NCBI GenBank assembly: GCA_963737655.1
Contig: CAVTTN010000002.1
Span: 2,208,001-2,272,000, forward strand
DNA: 64,000 bases
Source of the DNA: an uncultured Planctomycetota bacterium
GTDB lineage: Bacteria; Planctomycetota; Planctomycetia; Isosphaerales; Isosphaeraceae
Direction: 5' to 3'
The notes under the pieces are model-generated. The model did not search any database. It was not told where the DNA came from and saw nothing but the letters and a program-made list of their open reading frames with translations. Positions 5,752 through 61,128 of the stretch are shown here, piece after piece. Numbering within the stretch: position 1 is the stretch's first letter; the number at the start of each line of letters is the position of its first letter. The translations under genes and the position numbers were made by a program.

Positions 5752-5778
5752 GAACGGGCCGTAGGGAAGCTCTCATCA

Positions 5779-5813
5779 CCCACTGCCCACTGCCCACTGC
5801 CCACTGCCCACTG
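5779..5813. repeat. Heptamer tandem repeat (CCCACTG)x5
   Basis: Five perfect consecutive copies in the intergenic gap before the ATG at 5824. Confidence 0.97.
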
Positions 5814-5823
5814 TTTTCTGCCC

Positions 5824-7080: not shown

Positions 7081-7111
7081 AGTCTTCTCCGTCGATGCCA
7101 AAGGAGCGGCC

Positions 7112-11594: not shown

Positions 11595-12281
11595 ATGGCC
11601 CCGGACGAAGTCCACGTCTGGCGAATCCCTCTTCGCCGCGATCCCGAGGCCCACGACGGGCTCCGCGCCCTGCTCGACCCGGACGAACTCAGGCGGGCCG
11701 ACCGCTTCGTGGTGCCCGACGACCGGCACCGATTCGCCGTCGGCCGCGGGATGCTGCGGACCGTTCTCGGACGATACGAGGGGATTGAGCCCGACCGCGT
11801 CGAGTTCCGATACGGGACGTGGGGCAAGCCGTCCCTGGCGTCGGGTTCGCCGTTGCGGTTCAATCTCGCGCATTCGGGAGACCTCGCCGTCCTGGCGGTC
11901 GCCTGGGGTCGGGAACTCGGGGTGGATCTGGAGAAGTTCCGCCCGATGCGAGACGCCTCGGCGATCGCGGCGAGGTTCTTCACCGAGGCCGAGGCCGCCC
12001 AGCTCGCCGAGGTGCCCGAAGACCGGAAGCTCGACGCCTTCTTCGCCGGCTGGACCCGCAAGGAAGCGTATTTGAAGGCCATCGGCGACGGCCTGGCCAT
12101 GCCTTTAGACCGCTTCGAGGTCACCCTCAAGCCGGGCGAGCCGGCGAGGCTGGTCAAGGTGGACGGCCGGCCCGGAGAGGTCGATCGCTGGGTCATGCGC
12201 GAATTCCTGCCTGCGCCGGGATATGTCGGCGCCATCGCGGTGGAAGGCTCGGGCTGGCGGCTCGAGGATCGGGAGATCTGA
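11595..12281 (+). CDS. Sfp/HetI-type 4'-phosphopantetheinyl transferase
   Basis: GKP, FNLAHSG, LGVDLE and WTRKEAYLKAIGDG motifs. Confidence 0.95.
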   Translation: MAPDEVHVWRIPLRRDPEAHDGLRALLDPDELRRADRFVVPDDRHRFAVGRGMLRTVLGRYEGIEPDRVEFRYGTWGKPSLASGSPLRFNLAHSGDLAVLAVAWGRELGVDLEKFRPMRDASAIAARFFTEAEAAQLAEVPEDRKLDAFFAGWTRKEAYLKAIGDGLAMPLDRFEVTLKPGEPARLVKVDGRPGEVDRWVMREFLPAPGYVGAIAVEGSGWRLEDREI

Positions 12282-12347
12282 TCGGTTTCCGAGCGATCGG
12301 TGGGGTCATCGCGGACCCTGCCGAAGCCCTCGCCGTCGTTCGTAACC

Positions 12348-14469
12348 TCATTCGAACCGAAGGGCCTCGATCGGGTTCAATCGAGACGCTTTCCACGCCG
12401 GGTAATAGCCAAAAATCACCCCGATGGTGAGCGAGACCGAGACCGCGCCGGCGATCGCCAGGGGGGAGGGGGCCGTCGGCCATCCGGCCAGGAGCCGGAC
12501 GAGCATCGATGCGGCCCTGCCGACGACGATGCCGACCGCCCCGCCCATCAGGCAGAGCACGACGGCCTCGACGAGGAACTGGCGGAGGATGTCGCGAGGC
12601 CTCGCGCCGACGGCCATCCTCAAACCGATCTCGCGATATCGTTCCGTGACGCTCACCAGCATGATGTTCATGATCCCCACGCCGCCGACGACCAGGGAGA
12701 TCAGCGCCACGACCATCAGCAGCCCGGCGACGAGGCCGACCGTCCCCTTGACGGCCTCGACGACCTCGGTGAAGTCCCTGACCGAGAAATCCTGAGGGCG
12801 ATCGGGGCCGATCCGGTGCCTCTGCCGGAGCAATCCATTGATCTCCCCCATCGCCTCGGGGATTTCCTCGGCCGAGGAGGCGCGGACGAGGATCGCGTCG
12901 ACGTTCGAGAACCGTTCGAGCCTCGGCGAGTCCAGCGCCTGGGTTGCCGACGCCGACGGATAGAGGCCGGTCCGCGATCGGGGATAGCGCCGGGAGAGGA
13001 AATTCCCGGGCCCTTCGGATTCGGGCGGCGCCTCGGATTTCGCCCCTCCCGGCCCGGAGCTGATCCGGAACCGGACGGTCGTCCAGGGGGCGAGCAGGAT
13101 ATCGTCCTGGTCCTCGCCGACGATGTCCGCGCCCTTCGGGCTCGAAGACGCCCTGGACCCGCAACGGGACGTCGTTGACCACGACCTCCTGGCCGATCGG
13201 CGATTCGTCGCCGAACAGGGAATCGGCCAACGTGCGACCGAGGAGGCAGACCATCGCGGCCTCGCGGACGTCCTCCTCGGAGAACGCATCGCCTTCGGCC
13301 AGGGTCTCCCACTGGCGGACTCGGAGGAAGCTCGCGGTGGTGCCGAGGAAGCTCGCGGGCACCCAGTTCTTGTTGCCCCGGACGACCTGGGCCCGCGCAT
13401 AGACGATCGGCGCGAACGTCTCGACCGAGGGGCACTCGCGGCCGATCGCCTCGGCGTCGTCGGGGGTCAAGGTCTTGATGCTCCCGCTGCCCAGGCTCAC
13501 GCCATTGGCGCTGGCGGCGCCGGCCTGGACCAGGATGTTCTCCACGCCGGTCTTGGTGAGGAGTTCCCGGATGGCCGCCCACGCCCCCTGGCCGATCTCG
13601 GCGATGGCGATCAGCGAGGCCACGCCGATGATGATCCCGAGAGTCGTCAGCGCCGATCGCAGGGCATTGCGGCGGAGCGAACGCGTCGCGAGGGCCGCCG
13701 TTCCGAGGAGATAGCCCGAGCGGTCCGGGCGGTTCGGGCTCTCCGGTCGGGGCGGGTGGTCCGAAGACGATCGGGCCACGCCCGTGGCACCGGGGTCGTC
13801 GGAGACGAGGCCGTCCTTGATGCGGATCGTCCGGTTCGCGTGGGCGGCCACCCCGGGATCGTGGGTCACGAGGAGGATCGTCAGGCCATCCTCGACGTTC
13901 AACTGGCGGAAGAGGGCGAGGATCTCCTCGCCGGTCTTCGAATCGAGGTTGCCCGTCGGCTCGTCGGCGATCAGGACCACCGGACGATTGATCAGCGATC
14001 GCGCGATCGCCACCCTCTGCTGTTCGCCGCCGGAGAGCCGCGACGGCTCATGGTCGAGCCGATCGGCCAGCCCCACTCGGGCGAGGAGCGAGACGGCGCG
14101 GGCGCGGCCTTCCTTGCGGGCCTCGCGGTCGGCATAGGCCAGCGGCATCATCACGTTTTCGAGGGCCGACAGCCGAGGCAACAGGTTGAAGTTCTGGAAC
14201 ACGAAGCCCACCGACCGGCTCCGCAAGGCGGCGCGATCTTCTTCGGAGAACCGCGAGACGTCGTCGCGATCGAAGAGATAATGCCCCGAGGTCGGCCGGT
14301 CGAGCGCGCCGAGGATGTTGATCAGCGTCGTCTTGCCCGACCCCGACGCCCCCATCAGCGCGACCATCTCGCCCGGCTCGATCGCGATCGTGACGCCCTT
14401 GAGGACGGGGACCGTGAGCTTGCCTCGCGGATAATCTTTGTAGATGTCTTCCAGGTGAAGCGAGGGCAC
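12348..14469 (-). CDS. macB: MacB-type ABC exporter (fused ATPase + permease); frameshift at ~13138-13140
   Basis: GASGSGKT, LSGGEQQRVAIARSL, ADEPTGNLD; RSALTTLGIIIGVA; VGGVGIMNIMLVSVTERYREIGLRMAVGA; PIEALRFE. Confidence 0.9.
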
Positions 14470-14500
14470 GGGGGTGGTCCTGATCGAGAAGGCAAATCCT

Positions 14501-14521
14501 GGTGCATTTCATGCACCCTAC
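14501..14521 (-). repeat. GTAG-type REP-like palindrome GTAG-GGTGCA-TGAAA-TGCACC
   Basis: GTAG followed by a 6-bp inverted repeat, overlapping the macA TAG stop. A near-identical palindrome sits at 50396-50412. Confidence 0.6.
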
Positions 14522-15738
14522 TTCTTGTTGGCATGAGGCAGGATGGACATGGCTTCATCCACCTCGTCGCGACGGGTCACGCCGACGACGACCTCCAGGC
14601 CATCCTTCAGGCCGTCGCCGGAGATCTCCGTCTCTCGGCCGTCGCTCAGGCCGACGGTCACCGCGATCGGCCGGACGAATTCTCCCCGACGGACCCAGAC
14701 GGCCGCGAGCGTCTCGCGGGTCGAGCCGGTCCGGGCGTCGGGGGCGATCAGCGAGGGCCGGGGCTTCCACCGCAAGGCGGCGTTGGGGACGTGCAGGACG
14801 CCCTTCGCCTCCGCCACCTCGAACTGCAACCTCGCCGTGAGATACGGCAGGAGCTTGCCCCCGGGATTGTCGATCTCGACGACCACCGTATACGTCACGA
14901 CGCTCTGCACCATGCTCGCGTTCAGGCGGATTTGGGCGACCTTGCCGCGGAAAATCTCGTCCGGGAACGCACCGACGGAGAAGCTCACGCCCTGCCCGGC
15001 GTGGATCGAGCCGACGTCCGTCTCGTTGACTGACGCCCAGATCTGCATCCGTGACAGGTCCTTGGCGATCAGGAAGAGGCTCGGCGCGTTCAGGCTCGCG
15101 ACGACGGTCTGGCCGATGTTCACGCGACGATCCAGGATCACGCCCTTGACCGGCGAGCGGATCGTGGTGTAGCGGAGGTTCACGCCCGCTTCCTCCAGGT
15201 TCGCTCGGGCCACGGCCACGGCCCCCTGGGCGACGGTCAGGCTAGCGCGGGCGGTCTCGAAGTCGGACTCGGCCAGGTCGCGCTCTTTTTCGCTGGCGAA
15301 CCCGGCATTCTTCGTCTGGAGGCGCCGGACGCGGTCTCGCTCGCGCTCGGCCTGCTTCAGCTTCGCCTGCGAGAGCTCGACGTCGGCCTCGGCTTTCGCG
15401 AGGCTCGCCCTCGACTGGTCCACCCGGGCCTTCAACACCGCGTCGTCGAGCCGGGCGAGGACCGTGCCTTCCTCGACGGGCGAGCCGTAGCTGATGGGTC
15501 GGGCCGGGTCGCGCGGGTCCTTGCCGAATTCCAGGATCTCTCCGGCGATCTGCGCGCCGACGTCCACGACTTCCTCGGGCTCGATCGTCCCGGTGGCCTG
15601 GATCGTGGATTTGAGGTCACCGCGACGGACCGTCGCCGTGCGGAACGCCACTCGGGAAGACCTCGCGTCGAGCCAGTACCAGATGCCGGCGGCCCCGCCG
15701 ACCCAGAGGACGGCGATCAAGAATAAGAGCTTTTTCAT
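14518..15738 (-). CDS. macA: MacA-type periplasmic adaptor (membrane fusion protein)
   Basis: MKKLLFLIAVLW anchor; ATGTIEPEEVVDVGAQIAG; IRSPVKGVIL...GQTVVASLNAPSLFLIAKDL. Confidence 0.9.
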   Translation of the reverse strand: MKKLLFLIAVLWVGGAAGIWYWLDARSSRVAFRTATVRRGDLKSTIQATGTIEPEEVVDVGAQIAGEILEFGKDPRDPARPISYGSPVEEGTVLARLDDAVLKARVDQSRASLAKAEADVELSQAKLKQAERERDRVRRLQTKNAGFASEKERDLAESDFETARASLTVAQGAVAVARANLEEAGVNLRYTTIRSPVKGVILDRRVNIGQTVVASLNAPSLFLIAKDLSRMQIWASVNETDVGSIHAGQGVSFSVGAFPDEIFRGKVAQIRLNASMVQSVVTYTVVVEIDNPGGKLLPYLTARLQFEVAEAKGVLHVPNAALRWKPRPSLIAPDARTGSTRETLAAVWVRRGEFVRPIAVTVGLSDGRETEISGDGLKDGLEVVVGVTRRDEVDEAMSILPHANKK

Positions 15739-17387
15739 AGCGGCGCGGGCTCCCGGGCGATGTCGGCGGCATTTTCCTCGACGAGACGGCCGTCCCGCAG
15801 GGTCAGCACGCGGTCGGCGGCGTCGAACGCATCCTCGTCGTGGCTGACGACCAGGACCGCCTTGCCCGAAGCTCGGAGCTCGGGCAGGATCTGATCGTAA
15901 TATTCCGCCTTGAACCGACGATCCTGATTGGCGGCCCATTCGTCGAGGATGATGACCTCGCGATCTTCGAGGAGGGCGGTCAGCAGGGCGAGCCGTCGCC
16001 TCTGCCCCTGCGAGAGCTCGACCGTCGAGAACGCCCCGCCGTTCACCCGGGTCTTGCGGCCCAGGCCGAGTCGGTCGAGGAGGGCGGAAGCCTCGGCGTC
16101 GAGCCCGGGGCGGTCGAGGCCGTGGAGCCGGGGGAAGAGGTGGCCGTCGGCGAAGACGGTGGAGACCCTCTGGCGGTACGACTCGCGGTCCGCCTCGGAG
16201 ACCTCCCGGCCATCGACCGAGATCGAGCCCGTCCTCGGCGAGTACAGGCCGGCGACGAGCTTCACCAGCGTCGTCTTGCCGCTGCCATTGCCCCCGGCCA
16301 GGATCACGATCTCGCCGGGTCGGAGGGCCAGGTCGATCGGCCCGAGGCGGAAGCCGGCGCCGTCGGCGTCACGATATTCGTAGGTCACGCCGTCGAGTCG
16401 GATCGCGTCACGAAGGGGTGCCAGGCGAGGCGGACGAGGCTCGGCGGAGCCGTCCCGTCCGGTCGCTTCGAGGAGGCCGACGACCGCCTCGATCTTCAGG
16501 AGCGAGGCCCGGGCACGCCCCAGGGCCGGCACCCACGTCAGGATCACGTCGAGAGGGGTCATCACATAAAGAATCACCAGGACGCACCCGACGAGGGTGG
16601 CGCGGTCGAGCGAGGCCCACCCGGGTCCGACGAAGAGGAGGGTTCCCAGGAGGCCGAAGAACGCGGCCTGGCTCCACGACTCGGCGGCGGCGAAGATCGT
16701 GAGCCCGGTCGTCGCCCGGTCGCGGACGGCCTCGGCCGCCGGTTCCAATCCGTCGGTGAGGAACGCCTCGCGACGGCCGCGATGCCCCTTCAACTCGCGG
16801 AAGCCGTCGAGCAGGCCCCGAACGTGCCCGACCAGCACCTCCTGGCCGGCTCTCGCCGCTCGGAGATGCCCCATCCCTCGAAACATCAGGGCCCTGTCGA
16901 TCACCACCGCTCCGGCTGCGAAGATCAGGCCGAGCACGAGCACGGCCGGCGACATCCAGCCGATATACGCCAGGCCCGCCAGGACGATCGGCCCGTTGAT
17001 CGCGAGCATCGGCAGGCCCACGAGCGCGGCGGCGAGCGTGCCCGTGTCCTCCGTGAGGACGGTCAGCAGGGCGGAAGCGTCGGTCGCCTCGAACGCTTCC
17101 AGGGGCAGGGCCAAGATCGTCCGGGCGATCCTCGCGGTGAGCCGGGCGATGGTCCCCTGACCGAGGCGGACCGTCGCCGATCTCGCCGCGAATCGCGAGA
17201 GCGACGCGACGACGACGAGCCCGGCGAACAGGCCGGCCATCGCCGGGCCCGAGGGCCGATCGCGGGCGAGCTCGAGATGGATCATCGCGATCAGGGCCAC
17301 GCCCGCCAGCCCGCCGCCGGCGCCCGCCAGGAGCGCCATCGTCAGCACCGGCCGAGACTCGCGAAGGAGGCCGCTCAGCGGGTTCAT
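15735..17387 (-). CDS. Cyclic peptide export ABC transporter (SyrD/PvdE/YojI family)
   Basis: Transmembrane domain with GFRELK; FRLGPIDL, GGNGSGKTT, LSQGQRRRLAL, LDEWAANQD (family signature). Confidence 0.93.
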   Translation of the reverse strand: MNPLSGLLRESRPVLTMALLAGAGGGLAGVALIAMIHLELARDRPSGPAMAGLFAGLVVVASLSRFAARSATVRLGQGTIARLTARIARTILALPLEAFEATDASALLTVLTEDTGTLAAALVGLPMLAINGPIVLAGLAYIGWMSPAVLVLGLIFAAGAVVIDRALMFRGMGHLRAARAGQEVLVGHVRGLLDGFRELKGHRGRREAFLTDGLEPAAEAVRDRATTGLTIFAAAESWSQAAFFGLLGTLLFVGPGWASLDRATLVGCVLVILYVMTPLDVILTWVPALGRARASLLKIEAVVGLLEATGRDGSAEPRPPRLAPLRDAIRLDGVTYEYRDADGAGFRLGPIDLALRPGEIVILAGGNGSGKTTLVKLVAGLYSPRTGSISVDGREVSEADRESYRQRVSTVFADGHLFPRLHGLDRPGLDAEASALLDRLGLGRKTRVNGGAFSTVELSQGQRRRLALLTALLEDREVIILDEWAANQDRRFKAEYYDQILPELRASGKAVLVVSHDEDAFDAADRVLTLRDGRLVEENAADIAREPAPL

Positions 17388-20300
17388 GAGGCCCCTCCGA
17401 GCATCATCCGAAGCGACTCGGCCAGGCGTTCCACGCCGGGAGATCGGAGGATGGACGCATGGTCCCCCGGCACGGTCACGACGTTCACGCCACCCTCAAC
17501 GAGAGACGACCAGCCGAGCGTTGGATCGACCAGGGCGCCCGGCCTCTTCGAGGCGCGGAAGACCGTCGCGCGACCCGCATAGAGGCCCGGTGAGTACCGC
17601 TTGCCGGCCAGGTAGTTGGCGCGGAGGACATCCCAGAGCCGACCGGCCCGCTCGGGTCCGGCGTCGAGTTGGTAGACCTGATCGAGCCCGAAGAGGCTCA
17701 ACACGCGTCCCCGGCGGCTGTCGGCATCCATCGCCTTGAGTTTCGCGACGAGCCTTCGCGCCTCCCGGGCCGAGCCGACGCCGAGGTCGGCGAGGAACTC
17801 GGCGAGGAGGCCAGGGTCGATCGCGTCGCCCGAGCCGAACAGGCCGAGCGAGGCGAAGTCCGCGTCCATCCCGGTGAGGCCTCGGGCGGAGGCGTCGCGG
17901 CCGTCGCCCACGGTCGGCGCCTGGATGTCGATCAGCGCGAGCGAAGCGACCGTCTCGCCGGCCGAGGCCAGTTGCCGGGCCATCTCGAACGCCACGAGCC
18001 CTCCGAGCGACCAGCCGCCGAGATGGTACGGGCCTTCGGGTCGATGGCGACGGATCGCCTCGACGTAGCTCGCCGCCATGTCTTCGAGGCGGTTCAACGG
18101 CGGCGACGTACCGTCCAGCCCGGCGGCCTGGAGGCCGAAGAACGGGCGGTCCGGGGCGAGCCGCATCGCCAGCTCTCGGAAGCAGTAGACGATCCCGCCC
18201 GCCGGATGGACGCAGAAGAACGGCGGCTCCTGGCCCTCGGGCTGGATCGGCACCAGGGGAGACCACGGCTCATCCCCGGTCGGGACCTCGCGGAGCCGGG
18301 CGGCCTGGTCGGCGATCGTGGCGCCGAGGAACAGCGAGGCCAAAGGCAGCTCACGCCCGAACGCCTCGGCGATCCGGGCCGTCAGGCGGACCGCCGCGAG
18401 CGAGTGGCCTCCGAGGTCAAAAAAGCTCTCGGTCACGCCGACCGAGGCGACATCCAGCACCTCACCCCAGATCGCCGCGAGCCGCCGTTCGACCTCATCC
18501 CGAGGGGCGACCGAATCGCCCGACGAGCCGGCCTGTTCCTGGGGAGGCGGCAACGCCCGGCGGTCGATCTTGCCGGTGAGCGTCATCGGCAAGGCTTCGA
18601 GCGGGGTGATCGTCGAGGGGATCAGGTGTCTCGGCAGCTTCTTCCCGAGGAACGCGCGGAGCTCGGCGGCCGAAGCCTCGTTTCGAGCCACGAAGTAAGC
18701 ATCGAGCCGGTTCTCCCCGAGGTCGTCCTTCCTCGCGACGACGATGGCCGCGGAGATTTCGGGATGGCTCATCAGGGCGGTCTCGACGTCTCCCGGCTCG
18801 ACGCGGAATCCGCGAACCTTCACCTGGCGATCGACCCGTCCGAGGAACTCAATCTGCCCGTCCCGCCGGACGCGAACGCGGTCGCCGGTGCGGAACATGC
18901 GGGCCCCGGGGCGTGGCGAGGACGGATCGGGCAAGAACCGTTCGGCGGTCATCGCGCGACGGCCGACATAACCCCCGCCGACGCACTCGCCCGCGAGGAA
19001 CAGCTCACCGGGAAGGCCCTGAGCCACCGGGCGGAGATCCTCGTCGAGGACCATCGCCCGGACGTTCGCGATCGGTCGGCCGATCGGCAGAGCGTCCGGG
19101 GTCTCGGTGTCTCGAGGCTCGAACGCCGTGGCGATGATCGAGGTTTCCGTGGGGCCATACGTGTTGATCCAGCGTACGCGATCGCCGGCCAGCACCTTCC
19201 ACGTGGCATAGGCCGCAGGAAGGGCCGCCTCGCCGCCGACGACCACGAGCCGAAGCGTCTCGGGTAATTCGAGGCCGAGGCGGTCGAGGGCCTCGACCCA
19301 GACGTGCCAGTAGGAAGTCGGCAGGTCGAGGACGGTGATTCGCTCGTCGGCCACCCACCGGAGGAAGCGGACCGGGTCGAGCACGGCGTCATCGGGTCGT
19401 TGCACGACCGTCGCCCCGCAGACCCACGCGGGGAACATCTCCTCCAAGGCGATGTCGAAGCTCACCGAGGCCACCTGGCCCACGCGGTCGCCGGGCGCCA
19501 GGCCGAACAGGTCGATGGCGGCGAGGTTGTGATTGACCAGCCCTCGATGCGAGACGATCGCCCCCTTGGGCGTCCCGGTCGAGCCCGAGGTGTAAAGGAC
19601 ATAGGCCGGATCGTCCAGGGTGGCGATGGGCGAGAGGTCGCCGCCGGGCTGACGCTCGATCGCCTCGGCGTCGGCATCCAGGTGGAGCAGGGCGGTCGCC
19701 GTTTCGAGGAGGTCGCCCCGGGTGATCGCCAGCTTCGCGCGGGCGTCTTCGAGCGTCCTCGCGAGACGCTCGCGAGGGAACCCGGTGTCGAGCGGGACGA
19801 ACGCCCCTCCGGCCTTGAGGACGGCGAGCAGGGCCACGGCCAGCTCGGGGCGGCGCTCCAGGGCCACGCCGACGAACGATCCTCGGACCACGCCCCGGGC
19901 CCGCAGGCGGTTGGCGAGCCGGTTCGCTCGGACGTTCAATTCGGCATAGGAAAGCGTGCCGCCGTCCCAGGCCAAGGCGAGGCCGTCGGGAGTGGCGAGG
20001 GCCTGCTTCTCGAAAAGCTCGTGGACCCCGAGGTCCGCGATCGGCACGACCGGCCCGGCCATCGGCGGCGGGGTCGGCCCGAGCGGGAGCCGTGAGATCC
20101 TCGTCTCGGGCTCGTCGACGGCCGCTTTCAGGAGGCACGCGAGCCGATCGACCATCGCGGAGATGGTCGGCTGGTCGAACAGGTCGGTTCGGTACTCGAA
20201 CGAACCGACGAGCGCGCCGTCGCTCTCTTCCAGGGCGAGCGAGAGGTCGAACTTGGCGGTCCCCGGCCCCTCGTCCACCCGGAGCGAGTCGAGCGACAGT

Positions 20301-26200: not shown

Positions 26201-26636
26201 GCGATTCGAGGAGGGCGGTCTCGGTCACGAGGATCTTGGCCTCGGAGTCGTCGAGCATGAAGGCCAGGCGGTCCGGCGGGTAGATCGGGTCGAGCGGGAC
26301 GTACGCGCCTCCCGCCTTGAGAATCCCGAGCAACCCCACCATCATCGACGCCGACCGGCCGACGAACAGCCCGACGAGCGTCTCCGGGCCGACGCCTCGC
26401 TGACGGAGGAGCCGGGCGAGTCGATTCGACCGCTCGTTCAGCTCGCGATAGCTCAGCGAGGCCTGGCCGTCGGAGACGGCCGGAGCGTCGGGCGATCTTG
26501 CCGCCTGGGCTTCGATCGCGCGATGGACCAGCGCCTCGGCGGTCCCGGAGGCTTTTTTCTCCCTGAGCAGCCGGGCGACGAGGGCACGCTTCTCGTCCGG
26601 CGTCATCTCGGAGGTCGGCTTGGTGATCTGACTCAC
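23292..26636 (-). CDS. NRPS: A(Gly)-PCP-C (separate gene; the ORF track fuses it to the upstream gene)
   Basis: GTG 26636 overlaps TGA 26633-26635; N-terminal MTPDEKRALVARLL helix; code DILQLGLIWK (Gly); GGHSL; HHIASDG; acidic tail LTDEELDEML. Confidence 0.88.
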   Translation of the reverse strand: MSQITKPTSEMTPDEKRALVARLLREKKASGTAEALVHRAIEAQAARSPDAPAVSDGQASLSYRELNERSNRLARLLRQRGVGPETLVGLFVGRSASMMVGLLGILKAGGAYVPLDPIYPPDRLAFMLDDSEAKILVTETALLESLPIEGRDVVRLDSDWDGLGEFSVENLPGGAKANNLAYVIYTSGSTGKPKGVMVEHGSLRDFLKGMREILTPSAADTLLAVTTLSFDIAALEMYLPLTVGAKVEIASREEAADAPRLIARLERDRIGMMQATPATWRLLLEGGWTGRPELSILCGGEALPRDLADRLLPKGRALWNLYGPTETTIWSSAAKVEPGEGPVTIGRPIPKTQMYVLDGRFRPVPMGVAGELFIGGAGLARGYLNRPGFTAERFGPDPFAATPGGRLYRTGDMARWRPDGSLECLGRSDHQVKIRGFRVELGEIEAALAGRDGVAQAVVSARDDAMGEKRLVAYLVPRPDAAPNFAEIRSVLAESLPEYMVPSAFVILDALPLTPNGKVDRNALPDPSASRGPTAAAYVPPRGPIEAALVGMWAELLGVDRVGIFDNFFELGGHSLFATQLLARLRDVFAVEPSLKDFLDNATVASLGRLIEKELTAGTGLNAPAIARVSRDGPLPSSFAQQRLWFLDQLEPGRATYNIPTAVRLSGDLDVSALETALGEIVRRHEVLRTTFEARGGVPFQVIVQAGDFPLPIDDLSAVPEADRDGEVLRRLADEARRPFDLSKGPMLRARLLKLADRENVALVTMHHIASDGWSIGVLIREVAALYDAFRRGEPSPLPDSPLQYADFAAWQRDWLRGDVLRKQLDYWTGRLSGVPALEVPTDRPRPAILSQRGGIRASALSKELMDGVRSLSRSEGATPFMTLLAAFQVLLHRYSGQDDFAVGSPIAGRNRSETENLIGFFVNTLVLRANVTGEPSFRELLARVRREALGAYAHQDLPFDGLVGVLHPARDPSRTPLFQVMFVLQNAPMPPLESPELTLSPMDIDSGTAKFDLTLSVSEDERGPVARMEYASDLFDPATIDRMLGHFRRLLESIVAQPDGAIGELTMLSEEETRRMLGSWGEEESPAVLDGLTDEELDEMLSTLSPEDLPIDD

Positions 26637-29600
26637 GTCTCGGTCCCCGATTCGAGGAGGCGTTCGATCAAGGCATCGAGCTCCGGCCGAAAGCCGGGCC
26701 GTGGCGTCGGCATCCGCCGTGCCGGGGGCGCTCCAACGCCCCAGTTGCTCGCGCTCCGCCTCGGTCATCATGGAGAGGTCGCCGACCCGGCGGTGCGGGT
26801 CGGCGGCGAGGGATTCCAGCAGGATCTTGAGGTGGCCGAGCATCCGCCCGACCCCCTCGGCGTCGGCTTCCCGCGGGTCGAACCCGAGTCGCAGGCCGAG
26901 CCCGTCGCCGGGGACGACCGTCAGGGTCAACGGATAATGCGTCATCTCCAGCACCCGGGCGTCCCGGACCCCCAGTCCTCCCGCGTTCGCCTTCAGGGCC
27001 TCGTCGATCGGGAAGTTCTCGAAGACGACGACGCTCCGATAGAGAGGGCGGCCACGGTGGACATCACTCCACGTTTGAACACTCACCGGCGGGCTGAATT
27101 CGTGGGGCAGGCGCTCGACCTGCGCCCGTTGCAAGGCCCGGAGCCACTCGACGGCCGGCGCGTCCTCGTCGATCCTAACGCGCAAGGGGATCGTATTGAT
27201 GAACATGCCCACCATCGTTTCGACGCCGGGGAGGTCCGCCGGTCGTCCTGCAACCGCCGCGCCAAAGACCACGTCCCCCCGGCCGGAATAGCGGCCCAGG
27301 ACGATGGCCCAGGCCCCCTGCGCGATCGTGCTGAGGGTGATCCGCTCGGCTCGGGCGAGGCTTTCGAGGACCTTCGTCGTCTCGGGATCCAGCACCGACG
27401 CCTCCTCGGGGAGGCCGATCGCCTCGGCCGGGGCCGACGGACCCTCGATCCCCAGCGGAGTTGGCTCCACGAACCCCGAGAGGGTACGTCTCCAGAAGGC
27501 TTCCGAGGCCGAAGAATCCCGAGTCCCGAGCCAGGCGAGGAAATCCCGGAACGGCCGGGCCCGCGGCAATTCGGCCGAGCGGCGCCTCTCGGCGATGGCC
27601 AGGACCTCGCCGAGCAGGATCGGCAGGCACCAGCCATCGACGATCATGTGATGAAAGCTCCACACCAGCCGGATACCCTCCTCGCCCGAGCGGATGAGCG
27701 TCAGGCGGAGCAACGGCGCGAGCGTGGGGACGAATCCGATGGAGCGGTCCCGGGCGAGGAACGCTTCGAGCCGATCGGCCCTCTCGGCGTCCGGGACGAG
27801 GTCCCAGTCGAGCCGATCGACGGGCAGCTCGGCCTCTCGAAAGACGACCTGGACCGGCCGATCGGTCTCGGCCCATCGGATCGCGGTCCGCAGCGCGGGG
27901 TGACGAGAGACGACCGTTTTCCAGGCGTCAACGAGGGCCTCCTCGTCGATCGTCCGGGGCAGGAGGCAGGTGAACTGGTCGATGTAGACGCCTGGCCGGT
28001 CGTCGTGGATCGAGTGGAAGAGCATGCCTTCCTGGACCGGCGAGAGCGGATAGGCGTCTTCGAGCGCCGGATCTTCGGCGAGGAGCCGATCCCTCAAGTG
28101 GGGGTCGGGATGGGGGAATTCCAAGGGCCCGCCCGGCCGATCGATCCGGGAGGCCGAGGCGGCGAGCCCGGCCACGGTCGGAAAGCGATACAGCTGAGAA
28201 GGCTTCAGGTCCAGCCCGGCGGACCTCGCCCGAGAGACGATCTGGATGCCGCGGATCGAGTCCATCCCGAGGCCGAACAGGTCGTCCTCGACGTCGACAT
28301 CCGCCACGCCGAGCACCTCGGCCACGATGGCCGCCAGGACCGCCTCGGCCGGGTCGCGAGGGCCGAGACCCAACCGGCGCGATCGGCTTCCCGAAACAAC
28401 GCTGGGCGCCGGGAGGAGACGACGATCGACCTTGCCATTGGCCGAGATCGGCAGCGAATCCAGGACCATCAACGACGAGGGGACCATCGGCTCGGGGAGG
28501 CGATCGCGGAGTTCCCGACGGAGGGCGTCGAGGTCGATCGACTCTCCGACGATCGGGACGACGTACCCGGCGAGCCGGCCGTCGTCGCGGACCGTCGCCA
28601 TCGCCGCCGAGATCCCGGGATGCGACCGCAAGGCCGCCTCGACCTCCGCCAGCTCGATCCGGTAGCCCCGGACCTTCACCTGATCGTCGCTTCGGCCGAG
28701 GAACTCGATGTCGCCCGAGGCCAGCCACCTCGCCCGATCGCCGGTGCGGAAGAGTCGCGCCCGGGCTCGGCCGAGAACGGGTCGCGGATGAACCGCTCGG
28801 CCGTCAGCTCGGGCTGGTTCCAGTACCCTCTCGCCACTCCGGGGCCGCCGACGAAAAGCTCGCCCAAGGCCCCGATCGGCACCGGCTCACGCCTCGCGTC
28901 GAGCACGTAAACGCGAGTTCCCGGCAACGGCCGGCCGATCGGCGCCACGGAACCGGCCGGTCTGTTGTCCAAAGAGCCTTCGAAAAACGTGCTATCGATC
29001 GTCGCTTCGGTCAATCCATACGAGTTCACGACCCGAGCCGTTCCGCCGAGGACTTGTCGGAACCTTTCGTGCGCACCGCATCGCCAGAGGTCCGAACCGA
29101 CCGCGACGAGCTTCAGCGGCCCCAGTCGTCGGCCGGTTCGTTCGAGGAAATCGACCAGCGGCTCGGCCACGGCCGGGACGAATTCGGCGAATTCGATCCG
29201 CTCGCGAACGATCAGATCGGCGAGTGCCTCGGGGTCGAGCAGGACGTCCCTCGGGCAAGAGACGAGGCACCCGCCCGAGGCCAGGGCGCGGACCCAATCG
29301 CCGGTGAAGACGTCGAAGGCGCCTCCGGCCATCTGGAGATGGCGCCTCGGGCCGTCGGCGAGGCGGTACGCCTCTTCCCAGGCCCGGAAGGCGTGGGCGA
29401 GGCTCTCATGCTCCACCATCACGCCCTTGGGCCGGCCCGACGAGCCCGAGGTGAAGATCACGTAAGCGAGATGCCTCGGCTCGGCGCTCCCGGCAGGAGG
29501 TTCGCAGGGTTGCGACTCGATCGCGAGGCGGTCGGCTTCCAGGTGGACGACCCGGCCGAGGAAGCCTCCGAGTCGGTCACTCGACGCCCTCTCCACGATC

Positions 29601-32600
29601 GCCGCGACGGGCCGGCTCTGGTCGAGGACGTCCGCCCAGCGCGTCGGCGGATGCTCCGGGTCGAGCGGCACATACGCTCCTCCGGCCTTCAAAACGGCCA
29701 GGATCGCCACCAGAGCTCCCGGCGTTCTTCCCGCCTCGACGGCCACGAGCTTTTCCGGCTCGACGCCGAGGGTCTTCAGGTGGTTGGCCAGTCGGTTCGC
29801 CCGGGAATTAAGCTCGCCGAACGAGATTCGGAGATCGCCGAAGACCAGCGCCTCGGCATCGGGGGTCGCCAGGGCGTGGGCCTCGACCAGCTCGTGAACC
29901 AGCCGGCGATCGGCCGCCTGTTGAGACCGCCTGCTCCACGTATCGAGGAGTAAGTTACGCTCGGAATCCGGTAGGATTGGCAATGACGAGACGCGGCAAT
30001 TCGGGTTCGTCGCGATTCCCCGCAGGAGGGCCTGATAGCTCCCTAGCAGGCGATCGGCGGTGGCCGGATCGTAAAGGTCGGAGTTGTATTCGAGGGCCAG
30101 GGCAAGGCGGTCGCCGTCGAGCGCGGCCGAAAGAGTCAGGTCAAAGAGAGCACCGTCTCGGGCCAGAGGGATGGCCTCCAGAGCGAGGCCGCCGAGAGTC
30201 ATCCTCGCCCCTTCGCCGAGGGTGGAGAACGGCGTCAGCCCTTCGGAATCGAGCCGGTGGGCTTTTTGATAGATAAACATTGCCTGGAAGATGGCCGATC
30301 GGCTCGGATCGGGCGTCGGGGCCAGGCGGCGGACGACCTCGGGGAACGGGAACTCGGCATGTTCCAGGGCGTCGCGGACGACCTCTTTCATCCGTTCGAG
30401 CCATCGGGCGAAGGTCGGGTCGTCGGCGAGGTCCGCCCGCATCGGCACCAGGTTGACGCAGTATCCGACGAGGCCCTCCAACCCCGGCCGACCTCGCCCC
30501 GCCACGGGCGAGCCCACGATCACGTCGGTCTGGCCGGAAAGCCGCGCCAACAGGGCCGAGAACGCCGAGAGCAGCGTCGAGTAGAGGCTCGCCCCGCTCG
30601 ATTCGGCGAGGGCCACGATCGCTCGTGTGAGCGTGGAATCCAGCGAGATCGTGCGAGTCCCGCCGCGCTCGCCCAGGACGGCCGGACGCGGTCGGTCGGT
30701 CGGCAGTTCGAGGACGGGCAACGGGTCGCCGAGCCGCTCCTTCCAGAACGACCAGAGCCGATCTCCCTCGGCTCCTTCCACCAATCGCCTCTGCCATCGG
30801 GCGAAGTCGGTATACGAGACCGGCAACGGCCCGAGCCTCGCCGGCTCGCCCGAGACGATCTCGCGGTACAGCCGACCCAGCTCGTCCAGCATCACCGCGA
30901 CCGACCAGAAGTCGCCCACGATGTGGTGGAGCGCCAGCAAGAGATACGATTCCTCATCCGATCGCGTGAACAGAGCGACACGAAGCAACGGGTCGGCAGC
31001 GAGGTCGAATGGGCGATTGGATTGTTGGTCGAGATTCTCGCGGATTGCCCGATCCGAGAGCGCGGACACGTCTTCGATCGAGAATCCGAGATCGCGATCC
31101 GGAACGACCCGCTGGACGGGCAAGCCGTTCTCAATGGGGAAGCTCGTCCTCAAGGCGGGGTGGCGGACGACGAGGCGGCGGAGGGCGTCGCGAAGGGCCG
31201 GGACGTCGATCCGCGAGCGAATCCGGGCCGCGCCGGCGATCGTGTGCGCGGCGCCCTCGGGATTCACGTGCTGGAGAAACCACAGGGCCTGCTGGCCCGG
31301 CGCGAGCGGATGATCGCCGGGAACGTCGCCGGTGGCCTCGATGGCCTCGGCCGCGGGCCCGCCCACCTTCGGGAGCAATTCATCGGCGATCTCGGCCAGG
31401 CTCGGGCCCTTCATGAGGCTCGCCAGGGGGATCCCCAGCCCGAGCCTCTCTTCCACGCCCGCGCGGAACTCCATCGCCATCAGCGAATCGAGCCCGAGAG
31501 ACAGGAGAGGCCGGTCGGTGTCGATCCGCTCCGGGGCGAGTTTCAGGACGTCCGCCAGGGTCTCGCGGACCTCGCCGAGGATTCGGTCGCGGAGCTGGGC
31601 CGGCGGGACGGTGGTCAGGTCGAGAGCCGCTTTCGAGGGCCGCCGGTCGATCGGCCTAGCCTCGTCGATCGAGTCGAACAAGGGGCGGAGGCCGGTCGTC
31701 CCATGAAGCGTCTTGAGGGTCGGCCAATCGACGTCCGCGACGATCGCCCCGGCCGATCCCGAGGCGAGTAACGCGTCGAAGGCGGCCAGGGCGCGGGGTC
31801 CGTCGAGCGAGCGGAGTCCGAGCAATCCCAGCGTTCGCGTCTCCTCGGCCGCCATGCCCGATCCGCTCCACGGGCCCCAGCCGATGGAGAGGCCCGGGAG
31901 GCCGAACGAGCGTCGGCGATGAACGACCGCGTCGAGGGCCGCGTTCGCCGCCGAATAGGCCGCGGACCTCGCGGCGCCGATCGTGGCGGTGATCGAGGAG
32001 AACGCGACGAAGAAGTCGATGGGCAAGGATCGCGAAAGCTCATCGAGCAGGATCGCGCCGACCGCCTTGGGCCGGGCGATTTCGAGGAGATCCTCGGCCG
32101 AAAGGGCGACGGTCGGCCCCGGCCGGACGAGGCCCGCCGCATGAACGATCCCCCGAATCGGCGGAAGGGTCCTTGCGAGTTCGGAGAAGAGGCGACCCAT
32201 CGCGTCGCGGTCGGCGCAGTCGGCCGGGGCGATCATGACCGTCACGCCGATGGCTTCCAGCTCGCGGACCCTGGCGACGGCCGGATGATCGGCCATCGCA
32301 TCCCAGAGCGACCGATCGGGCAGCCCGCGACGGCCGACCAGCACCAACCGCTTGGCCCCGCGATCGGCCAGCCTCCGGGCGACCTTCAATCCCAGGGCAC
32401 CGAGACCGCCGGTGATCAGATACGTCCCGTCGGGCCGGAGCGCGGGGACCGCATCGCCGGTCGAGGTCCGCATGAGCCGGGCCACCGACCTCCGGCCGTC
32501 TCGGAAGGCAATCTGGTCTTCCCCGTCGGGATGAGTGATCTCTTCAAGGATCGCGGCGGAATCCAGCGAATCCGGGTCCGCGTCGATCAAACCGCCCCAC

Positions 32601-35600
32601 ACTTGAGGGAATTCCAACGCGATCGATCGACCCAGGCCCCAGAGGGGCACGCCGGCGATCGTCGGCGATTCCGATCCGATCGGCTGTGCGCCGTGAGTCA
32701 CGATCCAGAGCCTTGGGGGAGAGGGGCGATCGGTCGACGCCAGGCGCCGGATCAGGTCGAGCAGGCGGTTGCCCTGGCGATGATAAGACGCCTCGAAATC
32801 CTCAACCTCCCCGGCAGGGTCGGCCAGGAGGATCACGGCCCGGCAGCCTGCGAGGTCCATCTCCGAGGGCCGATCCTCGCCGATGAATGCCTCGCACGAG
32901 GCCCCTCGGGCGCGAAGCCCTCGGGCCAGCGATTCGAGGGCCTCTCCACTCACTCCGGCCGAGATCACCCATCGGCCTTCGAGGAGGGAGGTTCCGTTGC
33001 GGCTGGCCCGTTCTTTGGAGGTCCAGGTGAGTTCATAGACGAGGGAAGAAACGTCCGGCGCGGGGGCGACGGCTTCTGGGACGAGCTTCCGGGTCGGCGG
33101 CGTCTCGATCCAGAACCGCTCATGCTTCCACGGGTAGCGCGGCAGCCGGACGAATCGGTCCGACGGGTTCACCCTCGCCCATTCGGGCCGGAATCCCTTC
33201 CGGTAGAGGGCGCCGAGCGAGTCGAGGAGGGCGGCGCGGCCGTCCTTTCCGCGACGGATCGAGCCGAGGGCCTCGCCTTCTCGTCCGAGCTTCCGCAACG
33301 TCTGCTCGATCGATCCGACCAGGACCGGCCTCGGGCCGATTTCGAGGAAGACGCGGTGATCGGATCCCGCCAGCGCTTCCACCGCGTCCGAGAACCGCAC
33401 CGGTTCGCGGAGGTTTCGGGCCCAGTACGTCGCGTCGAGAGTCCGGCCGTCGATCTCGCGGCCGGTGACGGTCGAGATCATCGGGATGGACGTCTCGCGG
33501 GCGGAGATCGCGCCCAGGGCCTCGGCCAGCACCTTGGCGACCGGGTCCATCCGCGGGCTGTGGAAGGCGAAATCGACGTCGAGCATCCGGGCGAATACCT
33601 GGCGCTCGCCCAGGGCTGCGACCACCTCGCCCACGGCCGACGAATCGCCCGAGAGCGTGAACGACCGAGGGCCATTCCTCGCCGCGACGAACAGGCGATC
33701 CTCGCGACCCCGCAGGACCTCGTCGACCCCGGCCTCGTCCAGATCGACGGCCGCCGTCCGCCCCCGCCCGGCGACCCTGGCCAGCAGAGCCCCGCGAAGA
33801 CGGACGATCCGGCAGGCGTCTTCCAGCCCGATCGCTCCCGAGACGTGCGCCGCCGAGACCTCTCCCAGGCTATGCCCCGTGACCGAATCGGGCACGATCC
33901 CCCACGATTTCCACAGGGAGGCCAGGCCGACCTGGATCGCGAAATGGACCGGCTGGGCGATCGACGAATCGGACAGGTCGGCGTCTTCGTCGGCGATGGC
34001 GTCGAGGACCGACGGGCCGTCGTCGGCCCGGAAGACCGCGTCGCATCGTTCGATCGTGGCGCGGAACACGGGCTCAACCAGGAGGTCGCGGCCGGCCCCG
34101 GCCCACAGGGCGCCCTGGCCCGAGAAGACGATGGCCAATCGAGGCGGGCCCGACGGCCTCGCCTTCTCCACCTTCGGGCCCGTCCCATCCAGGAACGCGG
34201 AGAGTGCCGCGATCGCCTTCGTCCGGTCGTCGACGACGATCGCCAATCGGTGATCGTGATGCCCTCGTCTCGCGCCGGCCGTGGCGGCGATCGCGGCGAG
34301 CGATCCATTCTCGGTCGCCGAAGTCAATAAATCCCGATAGGAACGGGCCAGAGAGAGTAAGGAGTCCGGGTCTCGGGCCGAGATCGGCAGGAGGACGGCC
34401 CGTCCGTCGGCCGGCGTGTCGGTCGCCGTGCGATCGGGTGAGGATTGGACGATCATGTGGGCATTCGTCCCGCCGAATCCGAACGCACTGACCCCGGCGG
34501 TCCGGGGGCGTCCGGGATCGGGCCAGGATTCGGCCTCACGAGCCACTCGGATCGGCAAGCGGTCGAATGGGATGAGGGGGTTCGGGGTCTCCAGGTGGAG
34601 GCTCGGCGGGATCATCCCGCGATTCACGGACAAAGCGGTTTTGATGAGTCCGGCCACTCCGGCGGCGGCTTCGAGGTGGCCGAAATTCGTCTTCACCGAG
34701 CCGATGGGGCAGGGGGAGTTCCGGCCCAGCCCCAGGGCGTTTCCCAGGGCGAGGGCCTCGATCGGGTCGCCCAGGAGGGTGCCGGTCCCGTGGGCCTCGA
34801 CGTAGCCGATCGCGTCGGGTTCGAGGCCGGATCGCCTCAGGGCCTCGCCGATCGCGGCTTCCTGAGCCTTGCCGTTGGGGGCGGTCAGGCCGTTGGATCG
34901 GCCGTCCTGGTTCACGGCCGAGCCGAGGATCGTGGCGACGATCGGGTCGCCGTCCCGGAGGGCGTCGGAGTGCCGTTTCAGGACGACGATCCCCGCCCCT
35001 TCGCCCCGGGAGTAGCCGTCGGCCGAGGCGTCGAATGCCTTGCACCGGCCGTCGGGCGAGAGGAAGCCGGCTCGCGAGAACTGCGCGGTGAGTTCGGCCG
35101 AGAGTATGAGGTTCGCCCCTCCGGCTAGGCACATCGAGCTCTCGCCCCGCCTGAGGCTCTCGCAGGCGAGGTGGACGGCCACCAAGGACGACGAGCAGGC
35201 CGAATCGACGGCCAGGCTCGGCCCTCGGAAGTCGAACGCGAAGGAGATCCGGTTCGACGCGATGCTCGCCGCATTGCCTGTCAGCGCGTGGGCGTCGGCC
35301 GTTCCGGGCGCATCGCGGATCAAGGCGCCGTAATCGTTCGTCGAGAGGCCGACGAAGACACCCACGGCCGAACCGGCGAGCCTCTCGGGAGCCTGTCCGG
35401 CGTCTTCGAGCGCCTCCCAGGCCACTTCGAGGAGGATTCGTTGCTGGGGGTCCATCCGCTCGGCCTCGCGAGGGGCGATGCCGAAGAACGCGGCGTCGAA
35501 CTCGTCCACGCGGTCGAGAAAACCGCCCCGGCGAGGGGTCGCAGGGTCCGAATCGCGGGAATTCCGCTCGCTGGAGGTGTCTCGACCCTCGATCAGGAGA

Positions 35601-37644
35601 TCCCAGAACGCCTCCGGGCCGCTCGCGCCGGGGAACCGGCAGCCGATTCCCAGAATGGCAATGGGCTCGGTGGTTGGGGCCGGGATTTCCCGCAACGGCT
35701 CCGCGTCCTCTCCAGAGAGGAACCGCGAGAGGGCCTCGATGGTGGGATATTCATAGATGAGCGTCGGCGAGAGCGATCGGCCAAGCCGCGTTTCCAGCTC
35801 CCCGGCCAGCTCGACCGCCCGTAGCGACCCAAGGCCGAACCGAGAGAACGGCGCCCGGACGTCGATGTCGGCCGGATCGATCCCCAGGGGCCCCGCGAGC
35901 TTCCCTGCCAGCCAGCCCGCGATCTCGCCGGCCGTCGTCCGCGGGATCTGATGCCCATGGGAACCGTTCTTCGACGCTTCAAGAACCGATCCCTCCGGGC
36001 GGGTCCAGCGGGCCGCTTCGTCCAATGTCCCGGCCACGAACGCGGCTCGGCAGGCGAGCCGGCGGACCTTGCCGCTCGATGTCCTCGGCAAGCTCATCGG
36101 CCGGATCAGGACGACGGCCGAGAGATCGATGTCATGCTCCTCGGCCACGGACTGGCGGAGCGCTCGCAGAACCCCCGGAGCATCCTCGCCGCGCCGGGAC
36201 CGCTCGACCTCGGCGACGATCACGACCTGCTCGCCAGCCTCGTCGAGCGCGAACGCCGCCGCCCCGTCCGGATTCAGGGCGGGACTGCTGTCGGAGGCCG
36301 TTCGTTCGAGGTCTTGGGGATAAACGTTCCGGCCCCGGACGATGATGAGGTCCTTCCGCCGGCCGGTCACGAACAGCTCCCCCTCGCGGAGGAACCCGAG
36401 GTCTCCGGTTCGGAGGTAGGTTTCCTCGCCTCCGCCGACGATCCTCGCCTCGAATCCCTCGGCTTGACCCCAGTAGCCCTTCGCCACGCTCGGGCCCGAG
36501 ACCCAGATTTCGCCTTCGTCGGCCTCCGATCGCGGCCGGAGCGTCTCGGGATCCACGATCTGGAGCGAAAACCCCGGGGCGGCCGGCCCGCTTGAGGCGA
36601 TCGGCCGTCCGGCCCGTTCGATGACCGTTGGCGCTCCGCCGGAGACCATCAACGTGGCCTCGGCCAGTCCGTAGCAGGCCAGGAACGCGTCGCGACGGAA
36701 CCCGCGGGGCGCGAACGCGGCGGCGAATCGATCGAGCGTGTCGGCCCGGATCGGCTCGGCGCCGTTGAAGGCGACTTCCCAGGAGGAAAGGTCGAGCTCG
36801 GCCCTCTGCGCCTCGGGGATCTTTCGGCGCAGAGGTCATAGGCGAAGTTCGGGCCCCCGCTGATGGTGGCGCGATCGCGGGAGATCGCCTGGAGCCATCT
36901 CAACGGCCGTTGAAGGAACGCCGCCGGGGCGATCAGGGTGCTCGTTCCCCCACAATAGATCGTCTGCAACACGCCGCCGATCAGGCCCATGTCGTGATGG
37001 AGAGGCAGCCAGAAGACCCCCCGGCTCTCGCGATGGGAGCGGAACCGCCCCTGGATCGTCTTCGAGTTGTGGACGAGGTTCCCGTGAGAGACCATCACGC
37101 CCCTGGGTTCGCTGGTCGAGCCCGAGGTGAACTGAAGGAAGGCCAGGTCGTCGGGCGAGAGGGCCGGGGCGATCCACGAATCGGCCTTCGCGAGATCGAG
37201 GGCGTCGGTGGCGATTCGGGGGATCTCGGCGATCTCGGGTATCGGCTCGGCGAGGAGGGCGGAGGTCGTGAGCACGACCCGCGGAGCCACGGCCTCGATG
37301 ATCGCCCGGAGCCGGGGGGATGGCCGATTCGGCCTCGGAGGCACCGCCGGGACGACCACGACGCCCGCATACAAGCCGCCGAAGAACGCCGATACGAACT
37401 CCAGACCCGGCGGGAAGACGAGCAACGCACGCTCGCCGGCCATCCCTCGATCGCGAAGGACGGCCGCCAGGGCCCGGGCCCGTCGGTCGAGTCCGCCGAA
37501 GGTCAGGGCCTCGGGCCGGTCGCCGTCGGTCTCGGCCCGGAAGGCCAGGACGGGGCGGTCCGGGTCGCGATCGGCCCATCTTCGCAGGATCGCGACGAAC
37601 TCTCTCGGCCCGTCGCTCGGGTCGTCGGTGGGGTCCGTGCTCAT
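26633..37644 (-). CDS. Hybrid FAAL-PKS-NRPS: FAAL-ACP-KS-AT-KR-ACP-C-A(Orn-like)-PCP-C; frameshifts at ~36827, ~28761, ~26684
   Basis: [83 protein letters not shown]. ACPs: [20 protein letters not shown] code ~DVGEAGSIDK. PCP: GMDSI. Terminal [22 protein letters not shown]. Confidence 0.9.
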
Positions 37645-37645
37645 C

Positions 37646-37861
37646 TCAGGCCGAGTCGCCCCCGCGGTCCCGGAGCGAGAGCGGCCTCATGTCGGTCCAC
37701 GTCTCCTCCACAAACGCCAGGCACTCTTCGCGGGTCCCGCTCCGACCCGCCCCAGTCCAGCCGGGCGGTTCATCCGCCTCGGAGGGCCAGAGCGCGTATT
37801 GCCCCTCGCCGTTGACGACGACTTTCAGGACCCGGGCGCCCTCGACAGTTTCTCGGCTCAT
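37646..37861 (-). CDS. mbtH: MbtH-like protein
   Basis: VVVNGEGQYALWP...PPGW...CLAFVEETWTDMRPLSL signature. Confidence 0.96.
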   Translation of the reverse strand: MSRETVEGARVLKVVVNGEGQYALWPSEADEPPGWTGAGRSGTREECLAFVEETWTDMRPLSLRDRGGDSA

Positions 37862-40513: not shown

Positions 40514-40571
40514 GACGACCCGGGCGAACGTCCCGAATCCGCCGCTCTCGTCCCGAATTAAGACGGCTCGG

Positions 40572-43081: not shown

Positions 43082-43231
43082 GTTCGCCCTCCAGTCCGGC
43101 AAAGTTGGGATCGTAAAGTCAGGGAAGGGGCCTCATCGTAGAGATGCGGACTCGGGCCCGTCAACGAGCTGCTCCGACACCCATCCCCCATGAACCCCTC
43201 ACCCAATCTCCACTTTTTCCGAGCCAGCCGC

Positions 43232-43680: not shown

Positions 43681-45203
<1,523 letters not shown>

Positions 45204-45328
45204 CTAAGGACGATCGACCTCGGCCCGGGATCCTCGGATCTCGGTGACCGCATCGGCCCGCCCCTCCTCCTGCGGTGAGGGCGAGGCCTACGCCGGCTCC
45301 CCCCGCGGGTCCACGCGGAACGGACAGA

Positions 45329-45495
45329 GAGATCTTGCGATCGGCCGCATTGCGACCCCGTCTGCCCCTCCGGGCGCGGGCCGCGGCATCCCTCCCCGAG
45401 CGGGGGCGTGCCCCGGCCCCTGGCCGGCGGCCAGGCGTGCCGAGGAGGAATCCTCGGCCCGGCTTTTTGACAATTTGGCGTCGGTGACGAGACGA
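45329..45495 (+). promoter_or_regulatory. ITS processing stems and boxA
   Basis: 45331-45352 is complementary to leader 43424-43446 (16S stem); boxA-like CTTTTTGACAATTT at ~45463; 45471-45491 is complementary to 48674-48694 (23S stem). Confidence 0.8.
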
Positions 45496-45722: not shown

Positions 45723-48522
<2,800 letters not shown>

Positions 48523-61121: not shown

Positions 61122-61128
61122 GACCCGA

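Follow-up and report, generated by a model that had tools for sequence, protein, structure and literature searches.

Lipopeptides of the puwainaphycin, cyanochelin and variochelin types are products of cyanobacterial and proteobacterial assembly lines that join a FAAL (fatty acyl-AMP ligase) to polyketide synthase (PKS) and nonribosomal peptide synthetase (NRPS) modules, starting FAAL-ACP-KS-AT-KR-ACP-C-A (ACP, acyl carrier protein; KS, ketosynthase; AT, acyltransferase; KR, ketoreductase; C, condensation; A, adenylation). Natural subunit breaks between C and A occur in iturin synthetases. In the iturin and mycosubtilin systems of Bacillus, a loading adenylation domain activates the fatty acid, one KS extends it and NRPS modules follow (PMC3039948, excerpt). 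The syringomycin, arthrofactin and pyoverdine systems combine a SyrD/PvdE-type exporter (TIGR01194) with MacA and MacB, in that order (compare PMC3039948, excerpt). We analyzed a 64,000-nucleotide stretch of DNA (the window; coordinates refer to it unless a contig is named) from an uncultured Isosphaeraceae bacterium of the phylum Planctomycetota (contig CAVTTN010000002.1, positions 2,208,001–2,272,000). Positions 11,595–37,861 hold a cluster that has the same start as the puwainaphycin group and the same order of export genes. Where the iturins use an aminotransferase and a beta-amino acid, this cluster has AT and KR; it encodes four residues without epimerization (E) domains rather than seven with them, and the exporters differ. 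No iturin-family aminotransferase was found in the Pfam scan, and four A domains do not make a heptapeptide. In contrast to the puwainaphycin group, there are no hydroxylases or halogenases and the subunits are split between C and A; in contrast to the SyrD/PvdE systems, the cluster has no outer-membrane factor and its product would be much shorter. The FAAL-PKS-NRPS logic is already known, and the main interest lies in the proposed C/A docking, the split loci described below and the chance of testing both in cultured strains rather than in a single tetrapeptide.

In our reading the cluster is intact, and its three subunits form a line that assembles a single short lipopeptide for export; we consider this reading, with its proposed substrates, docking, sulfation and export, probable. 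The FAAL would load a fatty acid, and one malonyl extension with ketoreduction would give a beta-hydroxyacyl chain. Four modules would then incorporate Orn (or a diamino acid like it), Gly, Thr and Arg before a thioesterase (TE) releases the chain, most likely in linear form. The subunits, cut at the C-A linker, would be kept in order through an acidic helix at the C-terminus that binds a basic helix at the N-terminus. The Thr hydroxyl or the beta-hydroxyl is probably sulfated, by a sulfotransferase whose gene lies elsewhere in the genome. The SyrD-type exporter would bring the product into the periplasm, from where MacAB, together with a TolC encoded elsewhere, would secrete it. Outside the cell it might act as a surface-active or antagonistic amphiphile, a function we propose with some reserve. 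The Pfam scan gives complete KS-AT-KR-ACP and C-A-T modules (T, thiolation carrier) and a terminal release domain; the catalytic residues, read by eye from the translation, include the KS Cys/His/His, the AT Ser with a malonyl-type signature and the KR Tyr. The FAAL domain has FAALs as its top PDB matches (7r7e-g, 3kxw and FadD23/32/28) and as its best NCBIfam match, and a PP-binding domain follows it.

The exporter was compared with 120 other genomes of the Isosphaeraceae: 45 encode a close ortholog (best E ≤ 1.6e-45), and in the remaining 75 the matches are at 2.8e-28 or worse. We fetched and annotated 20 of the 45 loci so marked (G numbers denote relative genomes, L numbers fetched loci). 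At least one gene boundary lies between C and A in all 20, and in each of the 16 loci with a C2 domain it falls directly after C2. The upstream subunit ends in an acidic, Leu-rich tail, which starts just after the conserved Trp of the C-A linker, and the downstream subunit begins with a basic, Leu-rich head containing an invariant Lys-Arg. Both motifs are conserved (21 sequences each), and by eye a weak tail often accompanies a weak head. Judged by these motifs, tail and head look like a docking pair. Searched against 1.84 billion proteins, a profile of the head picked out 122, most of which by far carry the motif at the N-terminus. The domain that follows is C in 51, A in 37 and TE in one; two are read-throughs of the fusion type seen in the window, and 31 are unassigned. 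This distribution makes the head look like an ordinary T/C docking element reused at C/A. Searches of the PDB gave no sequence match to a docking domain (best E values 0.3 and 0.11, none below 0.1); motif position and charge agree. Complex prediction for the tail/head pair of one relative (G120), run with alignments, gave a score of 0.09. The head motif also occurs as a tandem duplicate in two relatives (L135:2951-3070 and L165:4000-4119, from G019 and G020), and a second PKS-NRPS in L187 (G107:C1:2547001-2567000) has these tail and head motifs where an ACP meets a C domain.

Reviewed NRPS docking sites lie at E/C, T/C and T/Cy junctions (PMC11221535, PMC7496407, PMC9113145, excerpts). The closest likeness is the three-helix-bundle or type 2 docking of PAX, which is likewise a short helical pair with a hydrophobic core, the C-terminal partner being acidic and the N-terminal one basic (PMC11221535, PMC9113145, excerpts). 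The PAX pair, however, acts exclusively from T to C (PMC7496407, excerpt) and is known at carrier/C junctions, whereas the pair here sits at C/A. Engineered A-T-C exchange units and type S NRPSs also split the C-A linker after the conserved Trp and add an interaction pair (PMC8362031, excerpt); they use synthetic zippers, where these loci have a natural motif pair of their own. If the proposal is correct, NRPS engineering, which now splits that linker with synthetic zippers, could make direct use of a natural C/A docking pair.

Six of the fetched clusters (G001, G002, G011, G014, G055 and G056) lack a TE and stop at a C domain whose tail is free. All six genomes contain a second locus of the order A(Gly)-T-C/A(Thr)-T-C-A(Arg-type)-T-TE, the slash marking a subunit break, which equals genes 2 and 3 of the window. 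On the same contig, the second locus lies about 2.8 Mb (G001) or 3.4 Mb (G014) away, and the four second loci included in a quick-method C-domain tree group within the clades of gene 2 and gene 3. The family appears to be a FAAL-PKS-NRPS backbone with exchangeable residue blocks, which at times join from distant genome sites; mining of single regions would mispredict such products. A Sulfotransfer_3 gene adjoins the Thr-Arg-TE genes in eight genomes: the six with split loci, G063 and, within a full cluster, G021. The genome analyzed here encodes an unbroken ortholog at 64–65% identity, among unrelated genes 3.4 Mb from the cluster (contig C2:5680311-5681399). Of the 46 genomes that carry the cluster, 11 combine a Thr module with a close ortholog, three have the Thr module only, one the ortholog only and 31 neither; none of the 75 non-carriers has the ortholog. 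The product is probably O-sulfated, and the link between sulfotransferase and Thr module is a lead that we favor slightly.

The E domain of module 1 has been lost, whereas the C domain of D-donor type remains. The top ten PDB matches of C2 (228–344 bits) are C domains of McyB, PvdL, BacC, SrfA-C and TycB, all of which we take to be DCL domains, and the next match scores 111 bits; C3 shows the reverse order. On this comparison of match order we discarded two other assignments of C2, to the dual E/C and to the LCL domains. C2 also forms a separate clade of 15 rows with support 100 in the quick-method tree. Its sequence is of the D-donor (DCL) type, and yet the upstream E domain (TIGR01720) is absent, while the T1 carrier bears a signature presumably of the type that normally precedes E domains. 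Only 60–78 residues separate the carrier Ser from the start of C in all 14 measurable homologs, leaving no room for E. A T-E-C module in G063 aligns with T1 and C2 on both sides of its TIGR01720-positive E domain. Four of the 20 loci have an ordinary C at this position. With E lost and C2 of the D-donor type, residue 1 is probably L, and D is possible.

The A-domain codes were extracted from an alignment of 75 A domains. They read DVGEAGSIDK, DILQLGLIWK, DFWNIGMVHK and DIEDVGTIIK for A1 to A4, reproducing the codes given in a preliminary description of this DNA, and the tetrapeptide Orn-Gly-Thr-basic proposed there is upheld, with Orn, Gly and Thr predicted from their codes. A1 is best called Orn-like, with Orn or a similar diamino acid predicted from its code and Dab (diaminobutyric acid) and Lys as alternatives; its pocket has no close relative among solved structures. 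The best solved relatives of the A4 pocket are CmnG and ApnA A1, whose substrates we take to be capreomycidine and Arg/Tyr, respectively. The A4 code also equals an Arg code cluster at 7 of 10 positions (PMC12283262, excerpt), and both likenesses favor Arg over Lys. The fourth residue, first given as Lys, Arg or Orn, is therefore still basic but narrowed toward Arg. On the best reading, the product would be an exported beta-hydroxyacyl-Orn-Gly-Thr-Arg lipopeptide. Cyclization through Thr or the beta-hydroxyl, also suggested earlier, finds no support. Thr at position 3 occurs in a minority of relatives, 10 of the 20 loci have no KR and some relatives have reductase ends, so cyclization is not a family trait. 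KS-AT-KR is present in 10 loci, KR is missing in six and the whole module in four. The losses look stepwise, with a truncated AT without KR in G014, G036, G044, G067, G069 and G019 and no PKS in G029, G030, G054 and G082.

Several points weigh against the assembly line as we have drawn it. Gene 3 carries a weak version of the head motif. The FAAL is 18–22 residues shorter, in frame, than six of six homologs, and the presumed site of the FAAL-specific insertion has 12 residues here compared with 34 in 7r7e; this in-frame loss may impair loading. The assignments of Orn, Gly and Thr to A1, A2 and A3 are presumptive. PMC12283262, in the excerpted part, backs only the His, Asn-type and Arg-cluster codes, and none of six code stems searched for was found in its supplement. 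The 63% identity threshold for sulfotransferase orthologs was chosen post hoc, weaker homologs (38–55%) occur in 35 further genomes, and the counts come from related, non-independent genomes, in fragmented ones of which Thr modules can be missed. The distribution of the cluster is patchy, with carriers making up 9 of the 47 best-quality genomes.

The cluster could also be decaying in this organism: it carries four frame changes, a shortened FAAL and a weak head motif on gene 3, and two of three genomes of the same genus lack it. The frame changes lie at about 36822, 28760 and 26690 in gene 1 and about 13140 in macB; those at 36822, 28760 and 13140 were located with intact homologs as queries and that at 26690 from the sequence itself. 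The change at 26690 masks a gene boundary: here gene 1 truly ends, and its stop overlaps the beginning of gene 2, which is read in a different frame. The 1795-residue open reading frame (ORF) at 28679-23292 was rejected as a real protein, since all 16 relatives with C2 break at this point; a public protein collection contains this artefactual fusion of the gene 1 end with gene 2. In relatives, gene 1 is a single ORF of about 3750–3830 residues. As a background, 248 ORFs from 20 regions of the relative G118 were compared with this genome (tblastn, fast mode), counting as orthologs matches of at least 50% identity and at least 70% cover. Orthologs were found for 132 of the 248, and 22 of these carry a frame change (23 changes per 157.8 kb). 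The 25.9-kb cluster is thus expected to contain 3.8 changes, compared with the 4 seen (P(≥4) = 0.52). The rpoC gene is likewise split between frames here, a break that three other genomes do not show. The changes in the cluster are located at runs of 3–4 identical bases, and there are no in-frame stops. Judged by the background rate and rpoC rather than by reads, the frame changes are likely assembly errors; because their density equals the background and rpoC is also hit, decay is very unlikely.

Other products can be weighed against a secreted amphiphile. A short polar head on a single acyl chain, the basic residue 1 (of Orn or His type) that most relatives share, the vertical-looking, position-specific C-domain clades and a GC content like that of the genome would all suit a peptide-headed envelope lipid, similar to ornithine lipids, that does not act outside the cell. 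We think this unlikely: the retention of MacB in 19 of 20 loci speaks for secretion, the cluster is missing from entire genera with complete genomes (g48, 0 of 9), and there is free variation at residues 3 and 4 and in the release domain. A protease inhibitor of the trypsin type, with a C-terminal Arg, is suggested by the Arg-like last module and by G067 and G069, where a PigE-like reductase after the same module would yield an argininal. The TE here, however, would give an acid or a ring rather than an aldehyde, and in many relatives the last module is of the Orn or Gly type, making such an inhibitor a shade less probable again. The PvdE-type exporter with MacAB recalls the layout of pyoverdine export, and the residue palette of the family includes His, Orn and Asn, as a metallophore might require. 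Yet no Lys/Orn N-oxygenase was found in this genome (88% complete) or in three of four relatives, the fourth having one weak match, and no hydroxylase or TonB receptor among 49 flank proteins or the scanned window ORFs, which are part of the flanking ORFs; a metallophore is thus the least credible of the three products.

All 20 loci contain MbtH, FAAL, NRPS modules and the exporter, and an adjacent phosphopantetheinyl transferase (PPTase) is found in three. The architecture, which the preliminary description did not recognize, is therefore family-wide, with the same backbone and swapped residues. Residue 1 is Orn-type or His-type (DSALIAEVWK being a His code in the excerpted PMC12283262) and residue 2 mostly Gly; residue 3 is Gly, Asn, Thr or Orn and residue 4 Orn, Arg-type, Gly or Asn. 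Release ends vary as well, those of G067 and G069 resembling the N-terminal reductase of PigE. No conserved tailoring gene was found among 49 selected flank proteins of main-cluster loci. Beyond the family, 5 of 400 genomes in a phylum sample have exporter matches at E ≤ 1e-70 (29–40% identity), and of 55 more distant loci, scanned with 10-kb flanks, only two planctomycete ones (L046 and L081) resemble the cluster end. The nearest named relatives of gene 2 are unnamed NRPSs of cyanobacteria and others at about 46–58% identity, and its best 120 matches include no characterized protein or named product. A C-terminal NRPS domain of about 430 residues, without a Pfam match and weakly similar to the PigE N-terminus, occurs at L137:10499-11989 and L139:10499-11998, and similar long tails in G039, G066 and G055:C119; it is likely a non-SDR reductive release domain. 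In one relative, a Tn5-like transposase lies between the TE gene and the exporter (L101:10024-11616).

In keeping with the preliminary description, no account of this cluster family or its product was found in the literature, although tables and supplements of planctomycete genome mining may list such clusters. The excerpted part of a 2025 review names stieleriacines, carotenoids and halogenated compounds from planctomycetes and no nonribosomal peptide (PMC12673574), and two mixed PKS-NRPS clusters are counted, without description, for Singulisphaera acidiphila (PMC12402505, excerpt). Cultured carriers are three Singulisphaera records, including Singulisphaera acidiphila DSM 18658, together with Aquisphaera insulae JC669 and Tundrisphaera sp. 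TA3, which offer a concrete mass target. The 10-kb locus of S. acidiphila DSM 18658 has Gly-Orn-TE at its end, that of A. insulae JC669 reads Orn-Gly-Asn and stops at a C domain without TE, and that of Tundrisphaera TA3 reads Asn-Asn-Arg-TE. A bolder proposal, put forward tentatively, is that Isosphaeraceae possess a natural plug-in NRPS: A-T-C blocks with one portable docking pair, in unlinked loci, would yield several lengths of sulfated cationic lipopeptide per genome, and the E-less D-type C would still select or tolerate a D-residue 1. If true, this would be the first planctomycete nonribosomal peptide family and a natural counterpart of the engineered type S NRPSs.

Table 1. Features of the cluster, in window coordinates.
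Feature	Position	Strand	Evidence or remark
MbtH-like protein, 71 aa	37646..37861	-	PF03621, 1.6e-17
Gene 1: FAAL-ACP-KS-AT-KR-ACP-C1-A1-T1-C2-acidic tail	26633..37644	-	three frame changes
FAAL loading domain	36100..37644	-	top PDB matches FAALs
PKS extension module KS-AT-KR-ACP (one)	31379..35668	-	Pfam
A1, code DVGEAGSIDK, Orn-like	28394..29884	-	A-domain alignment
T1 and D-donor-type C2, no E domain between	26730..28340	-
Gene 2: basic head helix-A2(Gly)-T2-C3-acidic tail, 1114 aa, natural A-T-C unit	23292..26636	-
Gene 3: A3(Thr)-T3-C4-A4(Arg-like)-T4-TE, 1971 aa, frame unbroken	17384..23299	-
SyrD/PvdE-family cyclic peptide ABC exporter	15735..17387	-	TIGR01194, 378 bits (cut-off 286)
MacA-like periplasmic adaptor, 406 aa	14518..15738	-	Pfam/NCBIfam
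MacB-like ABC transporter, one frame change at ~13140	12348..14469	-	Pfam
Sfp/HetI-type phosphopantetheinyl transferase, convergent with macB	11595..12281	+	Pfam/NCBIfam

All parts listed in the preliminary description (MbtH, FAAL, PKS module, four A domains, TE, PPTase, exporter and MacAB) were found by Pfam and NCBIfam scans (Table 1), and the overlapping stop and start codons it reported join gene 1 to gene 2, gene 2 to gene 3, gene 3 to the exporter and the exporter to MacA. Two of its epithets fare less well. The PPTase, called dedicated, is the sole Sfp-type match in the genome, but it adjoins the cluster in only three of 20 homologous loci, and the term is not supported. With the sulfotransferase ortholog encoded 3.4 Mb away and no outer-membrane factor within the cluster, the latter is probably not self-contained. 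No second MbtH copy, further C domain or other Sfp-type PPTase was found elsewhere in the genome (E ≤ 1e-8; 88% complete). Upstream of mbtH, neither a sigma-70 promoter nor a terminator was found. The planctomycete origin given in the preliminary description is upheld, as named relatives point to the Isosphaeraceae. The host contig is 7.6 Mb long, and the cluster has the same GC content as the genome (68.7%; completeness 88%). A second type I PKS locus (contig C2, ~3.872-3.880 Mb) and a lone A-like domain (5.544-5.545 Mb) are also present and may share the single Sfp PPTase. Elsewhere in the window, positions 259-10215 (+) hold a typical planctomycete run of DUF1559, TPR, FG-GAP/ASPIC-UnbV and TPR-multiheme cytochrome genes, of which the DUF1559 and ASPIC genes are also broken across frames. 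Positions 38632-43102 and 59179-63620 encode an ABC-2 permease, sugar ABC transporter parts and two GT4 glycosyltransferases with no apparent link to the cluster, and a complete 16S-23S-5S rRNA operon lies at 43681-48841 (+).

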